DNA of 4,966 bases, from IMG/VR virus record IMGVR_UViG_2663762992_000006; one strand, 5' to 3'. This document shows positions 1-4,966 of this stretch, in pieces (within the stretch, counting starts at the first letter, position 1; each line of letters opens with the position of its first letter). Below the pieces are notes generated by a model. That model did not search any database and had not been told where the DNA came from. It was given only the letters and a program-made list of their open reading frames with translations. Position numbers and translations under genes: made by a program. This DNA is from a virus. Taxonomy: Duplodnaviria > Heunggongvirae > Uroviricota > Caudoviricetes.

Positions 1-782
1 AAGGTCGTACAACGACGCTTGGCCGTGGAGGCAGCGATTATACGGCAGCCTTGCTGGCGGAGGCTTTACACGCATCTCGTGTTGATATCTGGACCGACGT
101 CCCGGGCATCTACACCACCGATCCACGCGTGGTTTCCGCAGCAAAACGCATTGATGAAATCGCGTTTGCCGAAGCGGCAGAGATGGCAACTTTTGGTGCA
201 AAAGTACTGCATCCGGCAACGTTGCTACCCGCAGTACGCAGCGATATCCCGGTCTTTGTCGGCTCCAGCAAAGACCCACGCGCAGGTGGTACGCTGGTGT
301 GCAATAAAACTGAAAATCCGCCGCTGTTCCGCGCGCTGGCGCTTCGTCGCAATCAGACTCTGCTCACTTTGCACAGCCTGAATATGCTGCATTCTCGCGG
401 TTTCCTCGCGGAAGTTTTCGGCATCCTCGCGCGGCATAATATTTCGGTGGATCTCATCACCACCTCCGAAGTGAGCGTGGCATTAACCCTTGATACCACC
501 GGTTCAACCTCCACTGGCGATACCTTGCTGACGCAATCTCTGCTGATGGAGCTGTCTGCACTATGCCGGGTAGAAGTGGAGGAAGGTCTGGCGCTGGTCG
601 CGTTGATTGGCAATGACCTGTCAAAAGCCTGCGGCGTTGGCAAAGAGGTATTCGGCGTACTGGAACCGTTCAACATTCGCATGATTTGTTACGGCGCATC
701 CAGCCATAACCTGTGCTTCCTGGTGCCAGGCGAAGATGCCGAGCAGGTGGTGCAGAAGCTGCATTTTAATTTGTTTGAGTAA
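1..782 (+). CDS. lysC: Aspartate kinase III (lysine-sensitive aspartokinase), C-terminal portion; 5' end lies outside the window, reading phase starts at nt 3, stop TAA at 780-782
   Basis: Frame-3 translation from nt 3 reads GRTTTLGRGGSDYTAALLAEALHASRVDIWTDVPGIYTTDPRVV... and ends ...GEDAEQVVQKLHFNLFE, which I recognise as the kinase core and C-terminal ACT-domain region of enterobacterial LysC. The ORF is open to the window edge. The other ORFs in the track over 19-682 are out of frame or antisense to it. Confidence 0.93.
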   Translation, partial: GRTTTLGRGGSDYTAALLAEALHASRVDIWTDVPGIYTTDPRVVSAAKRIDEIAFAEAAEMATFGAKVLHPATLLPAVRSDIPVFVGSSKDPRAGGTLVCNKTENPPLFRALALRRNQTLLTLHSLNMLHSRGFLAEVFGILARHNISVDLITTSEVSVALTLDTTGSTSTGDTLLTQSLLMELSALCRVEVEEGLALVALIGNDLSKACGVGKEVFGVLEPFNIRMICYGASSHNLCFLVPGEDAEQVVQKLHFNLFE

Positions 783-794
783 ACGATCAGTAGA

Positions 795-824
795 GGTGAA
801 TAGCGACCCACGACGCTATTCACC
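795..824. terminator. Stem-loop between convergent lysC and the Mor-like gene; possible bidirectional terminator and/or island boundary
   Basis: Perfect 11-bp inverted repeat GGTGAATAGCG (795-805) and CGCTATTCACC (814-824) around an 8-nt loop, 13 nt after the lysC stop and 13 nt before the stop of the minus-strand gene. There is no strong T-tract on either side, so the intrinsic-terminator call is tentative. Confidence 0.4.
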
Positions 825-836
825 ATGCCGGTTCAA

Positions 837-1184
837 TTACGAATTACTGCGGCGCTGTTGCTTTTCCGCATGTACGCGTTTCACTATCTTATAAATCCAT
901 TGCAGCGTCAGATTATATTTCTTCGCTAATTCGGCGTAGTTGCGCCCATCGCACTCGCTATAGATTTGGTAGTCACGCTCCGACGCCCGTCCGGAGATCC
1001 CTTTTGGGAAATAAATGCTTTGCCCGCCCCAGTTGCGCATCATTCGGTCGGCAATGGCAAAGCCCACATTTTCCGCCGATGAACTGTCGAGATTGATGCT
1101 TTCAATCAGAACTTGCGATGCATGAAAAGCCAGGTCGTTAATGATCTCCGGTGTCCGGACCATCTCTTTTGATTTTCGTATCAT
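837..1184 (-). CDS. Mor/C-family phage transcriptional activator (Mu middle/late operon regulator-like), 115 aa
   Basis: Complete ORF with ATG at 1184-1182, preceded by GGAGA (complement of 1191-1195) 7 nt upstream, and stop at 839-837. The C-terminal half carries the signature I recall for Mu Mor and C proteins: ...RNWGGQSIYFPKG... (glycine-rich turn followed by Y-[IF]-P-[KR]-G) then ...DGRNYAELAKKYNLTLQWIYKIVKR (HTH-like). Assignment is by motif recall, not search. Confidence 0.8.
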   Translation of the reverse strand: MIRKSKEMVRTPEIINDLAFHASQVLIESINLDSSSAENVGFAIADRMMRNWGGQSIYFPKGISGRASERDYQIYSECDGRNYAELAKKYNLTLQWIYKIVKRVHAEKQQRRSNS

Positions 1185-1390
1185 TTTTCATCTCCATATA
1201 TCTTGCATCCTGAATAAGACCCGATGCGTGTAAAACCACGGATATACGCTAAGCAGTTGTCATTACTGCTACTCAATACATTCAACAAACAAATAAACAA
1301 TCACCAGAAATATAAATTCTTAATATTAATGAACGCATAAATTCACTAAATAAATATATTGTTTGCGTTATGTTTCTTGTCAACAGGAGT

Positions 1391-1451
1391 ATCATTTTAC
1401 ACGATACTGTATGCACATACAGTATTATTTTTACCTGTAGTGTAAAAAGAT
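1391..1451. repeat. Imperfect 12-bp inverted repeat (11/12) flanking the LexA-box palindrome
   Basis: ATCATTTTACAC (1391-1402) pairs with the reverse complement of GTGTAAAAAGAT (1440-1451); the perfect 8-bp core is TTTTACAC / GTGTAAAA. Each arm contains a TTTACA hexamer resembling a -35 element, one on each strand. Confidence 0.5.
1405..1424. promoter_or_regulatory. Candidate LexA operator (SOS box)
   Basis: TACTGTATGCACATACAGTA matches the enterobacterial LexA consensus TACTG(TA)5CAGTA in both conserved half-sites (TACTGTAT / ATACAGTA, CTGT-N8-ACAG). It differs only at three central, weakly conserved positions and is itself a 10+10 inverted repeat with a 2-bp centre. Location is 221 bp upstream of the Mor-like start and 297 bp upstream of the holin-like start. 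Confidence 0.65.
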
Positions 1452-1720
1452 CGTTTCCCTCACAGTCGCTGACTTTCTTAAACAAACTTTAAAAATCAAA
1501 TAACTACTGACTATTCCTACGATTCACCATCATCTTTTCCCTGCATAATGACGCGCTTATTCGCGAGGTCACCTTTTGCTCTTTAATTGCTGAGTGGATT
1601 TATTAGCGGGCATGTTCATTTATAGAGAATCTATTTTTTAAAGTTATTTATTAAAGCTTTTTTCATTCTTCACTGGCGGGTTCTGGCGACACTAAACGCT
1701 CACTTATCAGGAGATACCGT

Positions 1721-2008
1721 ATGAAAAAAGTCACTCTTCCCCGGCTTTCCGGTTGGCTGGTCGCTTCCGTCGCGCTGTTTGTCGTGATCGGCTGGACCTC
1801 TTCAGCACAGATCCCGGTCGTCATTTATAAACTAAGCCTGGTTTCGCTTTCCGCGGTGCTGGGATACTGGCTCGATCGCAGTTTGTTCCCATGGGCACGG
1901 CCTGACTCTTTTAGCCCATGGAAGGAACCGCGTTGCTGCGCGGCGGCAATGATTCGCCGCGCCATCATCGTTGCCGCCGTCTGTCTTTCCGTCGCCTTAG
2001 GGCTATAG
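1721..2008 (+). CDS. Small integral membrane protein with three predicted TM segments; putative holin or lysis-associated membrane protein, 95 aa
   Basis: ATG at 1721 with AGGAGA (1709-1714) 6 nt upstream; stop TAG at 2006-2008. Hydrophobic stretches LSGWLVASVALFVVIGW, VVIYKLSLVSLSAVLGYWL and AIIVAAVCLSVALGL. It sits immediately upstream of a peptidoglycan-degrading enzyme gene. Atypical for a holin in ending inside the last hydrophobic segment with no charged C-terminal tail. Confidence 0.6.
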   Translation: MKKVTLPRLSGWLVASVALFVVIGWTSSAQIPVVIYKLSLVSLSAVLGYWLDRSLFPWARPDSFSPWKEPRCCAAAMIRRAIIVAAVCLSVALGL

Positions 2009-2010
2009 TG

Positions 2011-2616
2011 ATGTGGCTGAAATATATCGCGTCTATGATTATTTTCGTTCTTTTCCCTCTTAACGCCTCTGAACCGCCGCGAGCCTCTCTGGCATGGCGA
2101 AACGAACTAATTCGTACCGCTCGAGAAGTCTGGGGACTGAACGCCCCAGTGGCCGACTTTGCCGGGCAATTACACCAGGAGTCCGCCTGGCAGCCAATGG
2201 TACGTTCCCCCGTTGGCGCACAAGGCATGGCGCAATTTATGCCTGCCACAGCGACATGGATAAGCCTGTTGTATCCGCAGCTACGTGAAAATAAGCCCTA
2301 TAACCCAACCTGGGCGATTCGCGCACTGGTGCAATATGACCAGCATTTGTGGAAAAACATCTCAGCGAAAAATGATTGTCAGCGTATGGCGTTTACCCTA
2401 AGCGCCTATAACGGCGGTCAGGGATGGGTTAACCGGGATAAAAAACTGGCTGCATCCAAAGGGTTAGATGCCACTAGCTGGTTTGGTCATGTCGAGCGAG
2501 TCAACGCCGGGCGCAGCGCCACGAACTGGCGAGAAAATCGTCGCTATCCGAAGATGATCCTCTATCAACATGCCGCCCGCTACCTACTCTGGGGGCAGGC
2601 AAGCTGTCTTCATTAA
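2011..2616 (+). CDS. Family-1 (SLT-domain) lytic transglycosylase with N-terminal signal peptide or signal-anchor; endolysin-like, 201 aa
   Basis: I place the start at ATG 2011, 3 nt after the holin-like stop; the track ORF starts at 1918, but that upstream extension overlaps the holin gene. The N-terminus MWLKYIASMIIFVLFPLNA-SEPP looks like a Sec signal peptide. SLT motifs are present: catalytic Q-E-S (QESAWQP), GAQGMAQFMPATA, and AYNGG. Stop TAA at 2614-2616. Confidence 0.85.
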   Translation: MWLKYIASMIIFVLFPLNASEPPRASLAWRNELIRTAREVWGLNAPVADFAGQLHQESAWQPMVRSPVGAQGMAQFMPATATWISLLYPQLRENKPYNPTWAIRALVQYDQHLWKNISAKNDCQRMAFTLSAYNGGQGWVNRDKKLAASKGLDATSWFGHVERVNAGRSATNWRENRRYPKMILYQHAARYLLWGQASCLH

Positions 2617-2628
2617 TCAGAGGGGCCG

Positions 2629-2943
2629 ATGAAACTCAGTATCGATTTTTGGGAAGTGATCTCCCTTATGCTTTCCTTCGTTGGATTAATGTTTGCTGCC
2701 GGAAAATTGCTGTTAGCGCAAATTGAAAAAAGACTTAATGAGCGTTTTGAATCTCTGGAAAACGCGCGCCGGGAATCAGAAACAAGTTGGTCGAAACTGG
2801 AAAGAGAATTTCTCGAATTTCGTGCCGAGCTTCCGCTGCATTATGTCCGCAGAGAAGATTATCTTCGTGGCCAGGCAGTATTAGAAGCAAAGCTGGATGC
2901 CTTATATAGCAAAATAGAGCTATTACAACGCGGTAGCTATTAA
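2629..2943 (+). CDS. Membrane-anchored coiled-coil protein; candidate lysis accessory (i-spanin-like or Mu-type lysis-cassette protein), 104 aa
   Basis: ATG at 2629 with GAGGGG upstream. N-terminal hydrophobic helix ISLMLSFVGLMFAAGKLLLA, followed by a highly charged heptad-like region (QIEKRLNERFESLENARRESETSWSKLEREFLEFRAEL...LEAKLDALYSKIELLQ). Its position right after the transglycosylase fits a lysis cassette. No partner outer-membrane lipoprotein (o-spanin) was found. Confidence 0.6.
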   Translation: MKLSIDFWEVISLMLSFVGLMFAAGKLLLAQIEKRLNERFESLENARRESETSWSKLEREFLEFRAELPLHYVRREDYLRGQAVLEAKLDALYSKIELLQRGSY

Positions 2944-3060
2944 ATTCAATTTTTTCTCTAAAGCAGATTAAAAGATTCTCCACCTTCATTACGTCAGAAT
3001 ACATTTCAACGATAACGAAGTGAGCGTTAACGAATCAGCGATAATTAAGGAACACCCTAT

Positions 3061-3516
3061 ATGGAAATTTTATCAGTAATGAATTCTGTTGTGACCAGAT
3101 TACGTGAACAGAATCCCGAAATGGATGTATCTATTTCATCGGTTGATACCCATAAATATATTCCGCAGACGCAGCAAGTTACAGTGATTATTAATTATAG
3201 CGGTTCTCTATTTGCCATGCCTGAAAGCAGTGATGCTCTCGTGCAACAGCAAACGCTCCGCTTAACCGCCACCGTTATTGTTGGCAAAAATTGTGATGCG
3301 TTAAACGCACTGGACCGCATACGCAGCGCATTGGGTGGCCTTCAGCTTCCTGATTGCGATCGTCTTCTTTGGCTTGAAAAAGAAATTAATACGGGTGAGA
3401 GCGGCGGTTTCTGCCGCTACATCCTGGAAATGGCGACCAGCTCGCTGTTTATCGCTGAACAGGAAAACACGGATCTTCCCCTACTTACGGAAGTTAATTA
3501 CGAGGAAACTGAATGA
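3061..3516 (+). CDS. Phage tail-associated protein, likely Mu gp37-like (tail terminator / sheath completion family), 151 aa
   Basis: ATG at 3061 with AAGGAA RBS (3047-3052). Two genes upstream of the sheath gene and translationally coupled to the next ORF through an ATGA overlap at 3513-3516, which matches the Mu gpK-gp38-gpL order as I recall it. Family call rests on synteny and recollection, not measured similarity. Confidence 0.55.
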   Translation: MEILSVMNSVVTRLREQNPEMDVSISSVDTHKYIPQTQQVTVIINYSGSLFAMPESSDALVQQQTLRLTATVIVGKNCDALNALDRIRSALGGLQLPDCDRLLWLEKEINTGESGGFCRYILEMATSSLFIAEQENTDLPLLTEVNYEETE

Positions 3517-3710
3517 AATACATCTACAACGGCCCGGCAAGCGGCGTCACCCTTGCCGACGGACAAGAAATCTTATTGTGGCCGAACAGTGAAATTGATC
3601 TGCCAGAAGACAACGAGTGGGTCATGACCATGATTGCCCGCAATCACCTGACTTCTGTCATCACTCAGGAAGAACAAAATAACGGAGAGGAAATTGTACA
3701 TGGCAGCTAA
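3513..3710 (+). CDS. Small conserved phage protein immediately upstream of the sheath gene (Mu gp38-like position), 65 aa
   Basis: ATG at 3513 overlaps the upstream stop (ATGA); its own stop TAA at 3708-3710 overlaps the sheath start region. Acidic, with no TM segment. Function unknown. Confidence 0.55.
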   Translation: MKYIYNGPASGVTLADGQEILLWPNSEIDLPEDNEWVMTMIARNHLTSVITQEEQNNGEEIVHGS

Positions 3711-4966
3711 TTATCTGCACGGTGTAGAAACCATTGAAATTGAAACCGGCCCGCGTCCCGTTAAAGCGGTAAAATCCGCCGTCATCGCTTTAATCGGTAC
3801 GGCCCCCTGTGGTCCGGTAAATAAACCAACATTATGCCTTTCTGAAAGCGATGCTGCGCAGTTTGGCTCAACTCAGGCTAACTTTACGATCCCACAGGCG
3901 CTGAAGGCGATTTATGACCACGGTGCCGGTACGGTGGTGGTAATTAATGTGCTGGATCCGGTAAAACATGGACTGCATGTTGCCAATGAAACCATTACGT
4001 TCAATAGTGCCGATAAAGCTAAATTAGCTCATCCGGGAGTAAGTTCAGTAATATTAAGACCAGGTACCAGTTCCACTACGTACAAAAATACATCTTACAA
4101 TGTTAATGCCGCAGATGGCGTTATAACCCGTACCGGAACTGAAATCCCGGCAGGGGCGAAGGTTTACGCGACGTATACCTATGTTGATCCTACAAAGGTC
4201 ACCGCAGCCGATATTATCGGTGCCGTAAATACCGCAGGCGACCGCACAGGGATGAAACTCCTTCAGGACACCTATAACCTGTATGGTTTCTACGCCAAAA
4301 TCCTGCTTGCTCCCGTGTTCTGTACGCAAAAATCAGTAACTACCGAGCTGATTGCACAAGCGGAAAAACTCGGTGCGATTACCTACATTGATGCCCCGAT
4401 TGGGACGACATTCCAGCAGGTATTGGCAGGACGCAGTTCGCAAGGCGCTATCAACTTCAATACCAGCTCTGATCGTGCGCGTTTATGTTACCCACACGTC
4501 AAAGTTTACGATGGCATCACTAACCAGGAAGTTCTCGAACCGCTCTCTTCGCGCGCTGCCGGGCTACGTGCCAAAGTAGACCTCGAAAAAGGTTTCTGGT
4601 GGAGCAACTCAAACCAGGAAATTCAGGGTATTACCGGTATTGAACGTTCGCTTTCCGCAATGATTGATGATCCTCAAAGCGAAGTGAATCAGCTCAACGA
4701 AAACGGCATTACCACTATTTTCAATAGTTACGGCTCTGGTCTGCGCTTGTGGGGCAACCGCACAGCGGCATGGCCTACCGTGACCCATATGCGTAACTTT
4801 GAAAACGTCCGCCGGACAGGCGATGTAATTAATGAGTCAATCCGTTATTTCAGTCAGCAGTATATTGATATGCCGATTAATCAGGCGCTGATTGATGCCC
4901 TGACCGAATCAGGCATCATTCAGGATCAACACCGGGCCGCGGATTTCTGTGTCGTCCAACTGTTGC
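3700..4966 (+). CDS. Contractile phage tail sheath protein (Mu gpL-like myovirus sheath), N-terminal about 422 aa; 3'-truncated by window edge
   Basis: ATG at 3700 with GGAGAGG (3685-3691) upstream; I translated by hand to the window end with no stop codon. N-terminus MAANYLHGVETIEIETGPRPVKAV... and the later NSYGSGLRLWGNRTAAWPT (sheath-type G-[LV]-R-[LV]-W-G-x-R-T signature) are characteristic of phage and tailocin sheath proteins. Absent from the ORF track only because it has no in-window stop. Confidence 0.88.
   Translation, partial: MAANYLHGVETIEIETGPRPVKAVKSAVIALIGTAPCGPVNKPTLCLSESDAAQFGSTQANFTIPQALKAIYDHGAGTVVVINVLDPVKHGLHVANETITFNSADKAKLAHPGVSSVILRPGTSSTTYKNTSYNVNAADGVITRTGTEIPAGAKVYATYTYVDPTKVTAADIIGAVNTAGDRTGMKLLQDTYNLYGFYAKILLAPVFCTQKSVTTELIAQAEKLGAITYIDAPIGTTFQQVLAGRSSQGAINFNTSSDRARLCYPHVKVYDGITNQEVLEPLSSRAAGLRAKVDLEKGFWWSNSNQEIQGITGIERSLSAMIDDPQSEVNQLNENGITTIFNSYGSGLRLWGNRTAAWPTVTHMRNFENVRRTGDVINESIRYFSQQYIDMPINQALIDALTESGIIQDQHRAADFCVVQLL

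Follow-up and report, generated by a model that had tools for sequence, protein, structure and literature searches.

We find that the three co-directional genes at positions 1721-2943 of a 4,966-nt stretch of DNA (IMG/VR record IMGVR_UViG_2663762992_000006; "the window" refers below to this whole stretch) form a lysis cassette from which, judging by sequence comparison, both spanin subunits are missing. The genes encode a holin-family membrane protein of 95 aa, an SLT-domain lytic transglycosylase (endolysin) of 201 aa, and a 104-aa membrane protein similar to gp25 of phage BcepMu. We consider it probable that they head the SOS-inducible, Mor-activated operon of an R-type tailocin that originated from a BcepMu-like (Mu-type) prophage and is a relative of carotovoricin. 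Mu-type tailocins with a lysis module of the BcepMu type are known, and the lineage described here would be a spanin-less variant of them; in the literature searched we found no earlier description of this Escherichia coli/Enterobacter cluster. The initial annotation of the window had already grouped the three genes as a lysis cassette, which is borne out by their open reading frames (ORFs) and by the holin and SLT family matches, and it had reported three oddities. Two of these, the end of the holin and the signal of the transglycosylase, are ordinary family traits, and the absence of spanins is the real peculiarity.

A tail-only element without Rz and Rz1

Positions 1-4912 of the window are E. 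coli chromosome, 100% identical to strain A10, for which the RefSeq annotation gives the same three ORFs. In A10 the cassette belongs to an insert of about 16 kb with lysC on one side and yjbD on the other (NZ_CP028764, 4617562-4633202). The element carries genes for Mor, the three lysis proteins, sheath, tube, chaperone, tape measure, baseplate V, W, J and I, fibre and fibre accessory protein; its annotation holds no head, terminase, transposase, integrase or repressor gene, and TerS, TerL and gp26 have no tblastn match at the E. coli locus. With a complete tail set and none of these other functions, it qualifies as a tail-only cluster of the tailocin type.

The 104-aa protein is homologous to gp25 of BcepMu (45% identity by tblastn), to ORF28 of phage B3 and to the product of the last gene of the PhiKM lysis region. 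Each of these phages has Rz as a gene of its own, with Rz1 embedded in it, between the SLT gene and the gp25-like gene, and in intact relatives (BcepMu, PhiKM, B3, Pectobacterium) the Rz/Rz1 genes occupy 0.55-0.65 kb at this junction. In the window the junction measures 12 nt (2617-2628, + strand) and holds a GAGGGG Shine-Dalgarno motif. Because the 104-aa gene is homologous to the gene that follows the Rz/Rz1 pair, and not to Rz, both spanin subunits are missing. The initial annotation saw no o-spanin, and a six-frame lipobox scan agrees with it: no credible lipoprotein ORF was found in 1700-3100 or in the whole 16-kb element (L001 20780-38500), while all seven positive controls were recovered, namely the Rz1 proteins of BcepMu (gp24), PhiKM, B3, Mu (gp23.1) and the Pectobacterium, Samsonia and Lonsdalea loci. 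The same annotation took the third product for a coiled-coil membrane protein deprived of its lipoprotein partner; the lack of an o-spanin stands, but the protein is a gp25 homologue and not an orphan i-spanin, its cassette having neither subunit. A hidden o-spanin, u-spanin or disruptin was also considered and set aside, there being no lipobox ORF in either the window or the element. Just one further small ORF is conserved, of 65 aa (3513-3710); it is acidic and occurs in full phages too, and was rejected as a disruptin or spanin.

We surveyed 80 species genomes with a gp25-like homologue by tblastn with reference proteins, and the loci fall into three classes. Full BcepMu-like prophages (class A) have the order holin-SLT-Rz-gp25-like-gp26-TerS-TerL, with Gp37 and sheath about 8.5-9 kb further on. 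Tail-only loci of Pectobacterium (11 species), Samsonia and Lonsdalea (class B) have the order holin-SLT-Rz-gp25-like-gp26-Gp37-sheath. Tail-only loci of E. coli, Superficieibacter (2 species), Phytobacter, Dryocola and Lelliottia (class C) have the order holin-SLT-gp25-like-Gp37-sheath with Mor upstream, and an Enterobacter cloacae-complex contig shows the class C organisation at pgi-lysC. In Salmonella and Yersinia the gp25-like homologues belong to full prophages that also have Rz. Measured end to start, the SLT and gp25-like matches lie 16-31 nt apart in class C and 519-1047 nt apart in classes A and B, with L064 as the sole exception at 2601 nt; Rz of BcepMu and PhiKM has no tblastn match in class C loci. 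Since the carotovoricin-type relatives keep Rz/Rz1, spanin loss is specific to the lysC-linked enterobacterial lineage, from which, on this comparison, Rz and Rz1 were cleanly deleted.

The element lies directly downstream of lysC in five genera, represented by E. coli, Superficieibacter (2 species), Phytobacter, Dryocola and Enterobacter (lysC-linked loci L001 19433-22943, L008, L009, L010, L011 and L090). Synonymous divergence (pS) of the lysis genes, at 0.40-0.93, tracks that of lysC, at 0.45-0.64, and all four genes have the same two loci as their closest pair. Together, the shared lysC site and this parallel divergence suggest a domesticated element with a long history of vertical inheritance and patchy loss. 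Of 5426 complete E. coli genomes, 197 (3.6%) carry the cassette, always on the chromosome and in 196 cases with at least 80% of its length. Over 1721-2943 the E. coli copies form two allele groups: seven genomes share at least 99% identity with the window, and some 190 share roughly 96%. All three genes are annotated in 14 of 15 sampled E. coli rows; H71 covers 75%, without the gp25-like gene. Separately, an unverified 3.6-kb record named 'Escherichia phage ECO95 1-6-1' (OR845313) has the order SLT - gp25-like - Gp37 - 65 aa - sheath. We rejected it as evidence of a phage, as it is a fragment of a like tail-only cluster and probably bacterial DNA.

Could the cassette be the functionless remnant of a decaying prophage? 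Spanins, head and replication genes are absent, just 3.6% of complete E. coli genomes carry it, and the window copy ends in an aberrant junction. There, in the last 54 nt (4913-4966), the continuation of the sheath gene, which encodes 473 aa at full length in A10, is replaced by a match to rlmG, a core gene that the annotations of the matching genomes put at an unrelated place on the chromosome. This junction occurs in none of the complete E. coli genomes, whose match ends at 4912; either the contig end is chimeric, or the source strain has a rearrangement that cuts its sheath gene short. Decay is nevertheless very unlikely. The three ORFs are intact in six genera, the insertion site, gene order and LexA box described below are conserved, and the full tail gene set is present. 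The pairwise ratio of nonsynonymous to synonymous substitution (dN/dS) among the class C loci of six genera, whose synonymous sites are close to saturated, is 0.04-0.19 for the holin gene, 0.045-0.135 for the SLT gene and 0.025-0.077 for the 104-aa gene (0.03-0.19 for the three ORFs together). Given such low values across six genera, the three genes are not chance ORFs and all are under strong purifying selection.

The holin-family protein and the exported transglycosylase

The 95-aa protein (1721-2008, + strand) scores 94.9 bits with PF13272 (Holin_2-3; cutoff 27, E 4e-27) and also matches PHROG 1528 'holin' (E 7e-35), and its stop codon lies 2 nt before the SLT start; NCBIfam added nothing for this or the 104-aa protein. 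Its hydropathy profile has three hydrophobic segments, and its C-terminus, ...RRAIIVAAVCLSVALGL, has no charged tail. The initial annotation had made the same observation and presented it as a departure from the canonical holin-endolysin-spanin set. The missing tail is confirmed, but it is shared by all aligned family members, including those of plaque-forming phages: the holins of BcepMu (gp21), PhiKM, B3 and JBD25 and the class C orthologues have in common a C-terminus ...GL that falls inside the last hydrophobic segment. The loop between the second and third transmembrane segments (TM2-TM3) is short in the window protein, as it is in B3 and JBD25. With a basic N-terminus and an invariant RR ahead of the last segment throughout the family, the positive-inside rule makes an N-in/C-out topology likely, and therefore no cytoplasmic tail is to be expected.

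The SLT enzyme (2011-2616, + strand) matches PF01464 with 54.9 bits against a cutoff of 21.3 (E 8e-15) and PHROG 669 'endolysin' (E 6e-61). It looks active, because its E57 (nt 2179-2181, in QES) aligns with E478-S479 of E. coli Slt70, in which E478 is the catalytic residue. The suggestion that it could remodel peptidoglycan locally, in the way of transglycosylases that serve secretion systems, found no support, as the enzyme is orthologous to phage endolysins and its gene adjoins the holin gene. An alternative N-terminus from the upstream start at 1918 had also been raised. An in-frame ATG does exist there, and we reject it as an alternative start because it is not conserved and, in Lelliottia, Pectobacterium and Samsonia, stops lie 5-14 codons before the canonical start. 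The canonical start directly follows the holin stop in almost all loci examined.

The first 19 codons (2011-2067, + strand) encode a predicted Sec signal peptide, MWLKYIASMIIFVLFPLNA, followed by SEPP. This assignment draws on hydropathy and on comparison with orthologues. The peptide reads as MWLK, YIASMIIFVLF and PLNA|S, with K4 in the n-region, a Pro at -4 and the predicted cleavage site L-N-A | S. Its 13-residue core is strongly hydrophobic, with an 11-residue hydropathy peak of 2.6 and no 19-residue window above 1.6 on the Kyte-Doolittle (KD) scale; the uncharged stretch of 13-16 residues, rich in I, I, F, V, L, F and L, has about 20% small residues. It shows the sequence features of a type I Sec signal, which are a positive n-region, a core of 7-15 residues, a helix breaker and small residues at -3 and -1. 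By comparison, a signal-anchor-release (SAR) domain is a weakly hydrophobic, membrane-spanning segment rich in Gly, Ala, Ser and Thr, which this N-terminus is not; that of Mu gp22 is Gly/Ala-rich, unlike the E. coli core.

The orthologues point the same way. In 13 of 13, drawn from classes A, B and C, a small-residue AxA-type site at (-3,-1) stands at a fixed distance from the mature start (LNA, VNA, ANA, ACA, AYS, VQA, VCA, ACA, VHA, VAA, ALA, AEA), often preceded by Pro. All 13 have a short basic n-region, the sequence of the hydrophobic core is not conserved, and the mature protein opens with the conserved PPxA..(Y/W)R.E(L/V)IR. Conservation of the AxA site but not of the core sequence, together with a short, strongly hydrophobic core unlike that of Mu gp22, favours a cleavable Sec signal over a SAR anchor. 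The N-terminus of BcepMu gp22 is Ala/Gly-rich and more SAR-like than that of the E. coli enzyme. The hydrophobic N-terminus pointed out in the initial annotation thus does have signal features, but as a property of all 13 orthologues it does not set this cassette apart: a signal-bearing SLT enzyme is the norm among the BcepMu-type endolysins and carotovoricin-type tail-only loci surveyed.

Some relatives differ at this end of the protein. The N-terminus of the JBD25 SLT endolysin (L006 3898-4527), MKRLLTLGLLGLLSAC, holds a canonical lipobox (L-S-A-C), though the literature places the protein in the SAR group. Some SLT endolysins of full phages, namely those of PhiKM (L003 1630-2370) and of locus L070 (8665-9462), have an N-terminal extension with two hydrophobic segments split by a basic loop, the second of which ends at the conserved AxA site.

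The gp25-like protein

The 104-aa protein (2629-2943, + strand) matches PHROG 462 (E 6e-34) and no Pfam family, and its family, of 960 clusters at 50% identity (E <= 1e-3), has no Pfam entry. It has one N-terminal transmembrane domain (TMD) at about residues 7-30, and the AlphaFold2 (AF2) model consists of a helix at 7-67, a loop and a helix at 75-102 (pLDDT 80.6). A Foldseek search with this model gave one uninformative match in BFVD (E 8.8) and none in the PDB. The family is marked by the conserved motif LPxxYVRREDYxRGQxVIEAKLDAL, whose LPxxYVRREDYxRGQ part forms the loop. Among 147 members, 96% carry more Lys/Arg past the TMD and are N-out/C-in by the positive-inside rule, as are 100% of DUF2730 proteins. 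The helical domain is thus predicted to be cytoplasmic, the reverse of an i-spanin.

This orientation bears on the idea that the 104-aa protein is an Rz-like i-spanin whose lipoprotein partner was lost or never present. It is small, has an N-terminal TMD and coiled-coil-like helices, and is encoded after the endolysin gene; moreover, some records label its homologues 'lipoprotein' or overlap an 'Rz-like spanin' annotation. We regard the idea as extremely improbable, since the helices of 96% of members would lie on the wrong side of the membrane and a separate Rz with embedded Rz1 precedes the homologue in BcepMu, B3, PhiKM, Salmonella, Yersinia and Pectobacterium. The 'lipoprotein' label of PHROG 462 appears to trace to a chance LGAC in B3 ORF28 (L005 3001-3390), and the Cys is not conserved in the family.

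After the spanins and before the gp26-like gene or TerS (BcepMu, B3, PhiKM and more than 60 prophage loci), the gp25-like gene takes the place of Mu gp25 and of the DUF2730 gene of JBD25. Mu gp25, the DUF2730 'releasin', is a proven lysis protein that is needed to free the Mu SAR endolysin (PMC9239132). The gp25-like protein shares its architecture: about 100 aa, an N-terminal TMD, N-out/C-in topology, cytoplasmic helices and a gene within five genes downstream of the endolysin gene. The gp25-like family keeps company with SLT, GH19-like, amidase and GH24-like endolysins (the last three types at L078 7724-8257, L083 8567-9073 and L087 8613-9284), and DUF2730 proteins have likewise been reported with diverse endolysin types (PMC9239132). 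On sequence and predicted topology, then, the 104-aa protein is a positional and architectural analogue of the Mu releasin and not a member of its family, homology not being demonstrable, and it is a candidate lysis accessory protein.

It is possible, though we think it fairly unlikely, that the 104-aa protein acts outside lysis, in tail morphogenesis or in the regulation of genes, for instance as a factor tethered to the membrane, and just happens to be encoded at a module boundary. In full phages gp26-TerS-TerL always come right after the gp25-like gene, irrespective of the endolysin type, and the sharply conserved motif suggests a specific partner. Against this, the gene is retained under purifying selection in two lineages that have no terminase or head, even where gp26 and the spanins are gone, as in the E. 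coli lineage, and the Mu positional counterpart is a proven lysis protein (PMC9239132). Because the gene is kept in both head-less lineages, we prefer a role in lysis or release to one in head assembly or packaging.

The lysis region of many full BcepMu-like prophages, but of none of the tail-only loci, includes a small ORF for a TraR/DksA-like C4 zinc finger ahead of the gp25-like gene. It directly precedes the gp25-like gene, after Rz/Rz1, at L026 9774-10004, L051 9699-10004 and L087 9444-10004 (C-terminal part). At L075 (9729-10004) it is again directly upstream, after structural-looking ORFs, and at L078 (9091-9327) one further ORF stands between.

SOS control, proposed release and relation to known systems

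The sequence CTGT-N8-ACAG occurs once in the window, against 0.07 expected. This perfect LexA (SOS) box, TACTGTATGCACATACAGTA at 1405-1424, is part of a regulatory region (1396-1446, both strands) in the AT-rich spacer of 536 nt between mor and the holin gene. It overlaps the -10 element of a sigma70-like promoter on the + strand (TTTACA at 1396-1401, 16 nt, TACAGT at 1418-1423). It also overlaps a mirror site on the - strand, read by eye, that faces mor (TTTACA at 1446-1441, TACTGT at 1424-1419). Five of the six class C loci keep the box, at a distance of 315-366 nt ahead of the holin ATG. From the box and the promoter-like hexamers we infer LexA/SOS control of the E. coli cluster; carotovoricin is under LexA control (PMC13566846).

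We suggest the following course of events. DNA damage would remove LexA from 1405-1424, allowing expression of the Mor-family activator and of the long + strand operon; this step draws on the box, on the sites that resemble promoters and on the LexA control reported for carotovoricin. The SLT enzyme would be exported by Sec throughout morphogenesis and, most likely cleaved, would wait in the periplasm. Its export signal is evident from the sequence, and cleavage and latency are presumed. The PF13272 holin would build up in the inner membrane, and its triggering may collapse the membrane potential and so unleash the exported enzyme, by likeness to other secreted or SAR endolysins. In the weakest step, the 104-aa protein, N-out/C-in, might act as an accessory or regulator of enzyme activation from the cytoplasmic face. 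The outer membrane would receive no spanin attack, and release would have to rely on mechanical or osmotic rupture or on a further factor.

Several points weigh against this reading. BLASTP of the gp25-like protein against Mu gp25 and JBD25 gave no alignment; PF10805 had no match at E <= 10 to the window protein, BcepMu gp25 or the PhiKM homologue, and reached 5 of 150 family members below threshold (best E 0.011, comparable to coiled-coil noise). The hhalign probability between the gp25-like and DUF2730 alignments was 0.8%, 4.8% and 10% as the alignments were broadened (narrow and broad, on both sides). With all three approaches non-significant, we rejected DUF2730 membership of the 104-aa protein. 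No experiment exists on any member of the gp25-like family, the literature searched holds none on PF13272 holins, whose Pfam label itself says 'putative', and it does not document particle production by E. coli with the cluster. The sheath-rlmG junction, if real, would leave the sheath gene truncated. The homologous SLT enzymes of Mu-like Pseudomonas siphophages are classed as SAR proteins, not cleaved (Chamblee et al., PMC9239132), and if the signal peptide is cleaved here, a releasin-type function has no obvious substrate.

In a Mu-like alternative, the SLT enzyme is an uncleaved SAR endolysin tethered to the inner membrane, the 104-aa protein a true but very divergent releasin that drives its release, and the PF13272 protein only a timing or pinholin part. 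We judge it unlikely. The position and topology of the 104-aa protein are those of Mu gp25 and DUF2730 proteins, the Pseudomonas Mu-like siphophage SLT homologues are SAR enzymes that go with a type II DUF2730 protein (PMC9239132), the N-terminus of BcepMu gp22 is Ala/Gly-rich, and a weak co-linear signal comes from hhalign (E 0.003, probability 10%). What speaks against it is the E. coli core itself, short, strongly hydrophobic, with about 20% small residues and unlike Mu gp22, as well as the AxA-type site in 13 of 13 orthologues and the lack of significant sequence or profile similarity to DUF2730. We therefore favour a Sec-exported, most likely cleaved transglycosylase that the holin would unleash.

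In the lysis of Gram-negative cells by phages, spanins count as the third essential step. Here a domesticated tail-only element, at one site in at least five enterobacterial genera, has dropped them and kept the neighbouring membrane protein. The cluster is thus a natural test case both for breach of the outer membrane without spanins and for the role of proteins in the gp25 position of Mu-like phages. More tentatively, and with considerable doubt on our part, the gp25-like family may be a second type of releasin-like lysis factor, unrelated to DUF2730 as far as sequence similarity shows, which in the lysC-linked tailocin of E. coli, Enterobacter and relatives would, with a Sec-exported SLT enzyme and a C-out holin, be sufficient for spanin-free release. 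If true, this would be a naturally minimised, long-maintained three-gene lysis system for the Gram-negative envelope. The data also point to an undescribed tailocin, with predicted SOS control, carried by the Enterobacter cloacae complex and by about 3.6% of complete E. coli genomes, which may matter in strain competition.

In the window, the 3' end of lysC (51-782) is followed by the gene for a 115-aa Mor/C-family transcription activator on the - strand (837-1184; PF08765, E 6e-38; PHROG 532 'late transcriptional activator'), which is divergent from the lysis-tail operon; class C loci from other genera have it at this same place. Downstream of the lysis genes, on the + strand, come the first tail gene, for a Gp37-family protein (3061-3516; PF09646, E 6e-34), the 65-aa protein mentioned above (PHROG 895), with a like order in Enterobacter, and the 5' part of the tail sheath gene (3700-4912; PF04984, PHROG 23). 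No Rfam family matches in the window. At the distal end of the A10 element, before yjbD (L001 36491-38415, minus strand), lie a nucleotidyltransferase-domain gene and a slipin-family gene; PADLOC had no match among the distal genes.

Among known systems, Mu (gp22, gp23/gp23.1, gp25) has a gene order like that of the BcepMu family, endolysin - spanins - small N-out/C-in protein - gp26 - TerS, and its gp25, like the 104-aa protein, has about 100 aa and a cytoplasmic helical domain (PMC9239132). Mu differs in lacking a holin and in using as endolysin a muramidase whose SAR domain is Gly/Ala-rich. The tailocin reported from ST131 (PMC9205054) was considered as the same element and rejected, since that report describes a P2-like element, and a review of kosakonicin gave no lysis-gene detail. 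A parallel to the exported enzyme comes from further afield. The endolysin Lys44 of Oenococcus phage fOg44 is exported by Sec, and the holin is needed solely to dissipate the membrane potential. Export before lysis would be common to Lys44 and, as predicted, to the SLT enzyme here, whereas the enzyme class differs and the host of fOg44 is Gram-positive.

The closest phages are BcepMu (gp21 holin, gp22 SLT, gp23 Rz, gp24 Rz1, gp25) and the E. coli Bcepmuvirus PhiKM, in which the three genes are homologous and in the same order, with the same holin C-terminus and an export signal ahead of the same conserved mature SLT start. They have Rz/Rz1 between SLT and gp25, as well as gp26, terminase and head genes, all of which the E. 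coli cluster is without, and the TM2-TM3 loop of the window holin is about 20 residues shorter than theirs. Among tailocins, the nearest is carotovoricin, the Mu-type, LexA-regulated R-tailocin of Pectobacterium, whose locus begins with holin and lytic transglycosylase genes (PMC13195805, PMC13566846). We infer that the class B loci are carotovoricin by matching them to the published description, not by direct comparison with AB045036. Their sheath is about 75% identical to that of E. coli, the holin about 67% and the SLT enzyme about 65%. Both clusters are tail-only, under LexA/SOS control (predicted in E. coli) and without a dedicated repressor. The class B loci keep Rz, the embedded Rz1 and the gp26-like gene and have no adjacent Mor, and the E. 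coli/Enterobacter clusters, beside lysC, show the reverse.

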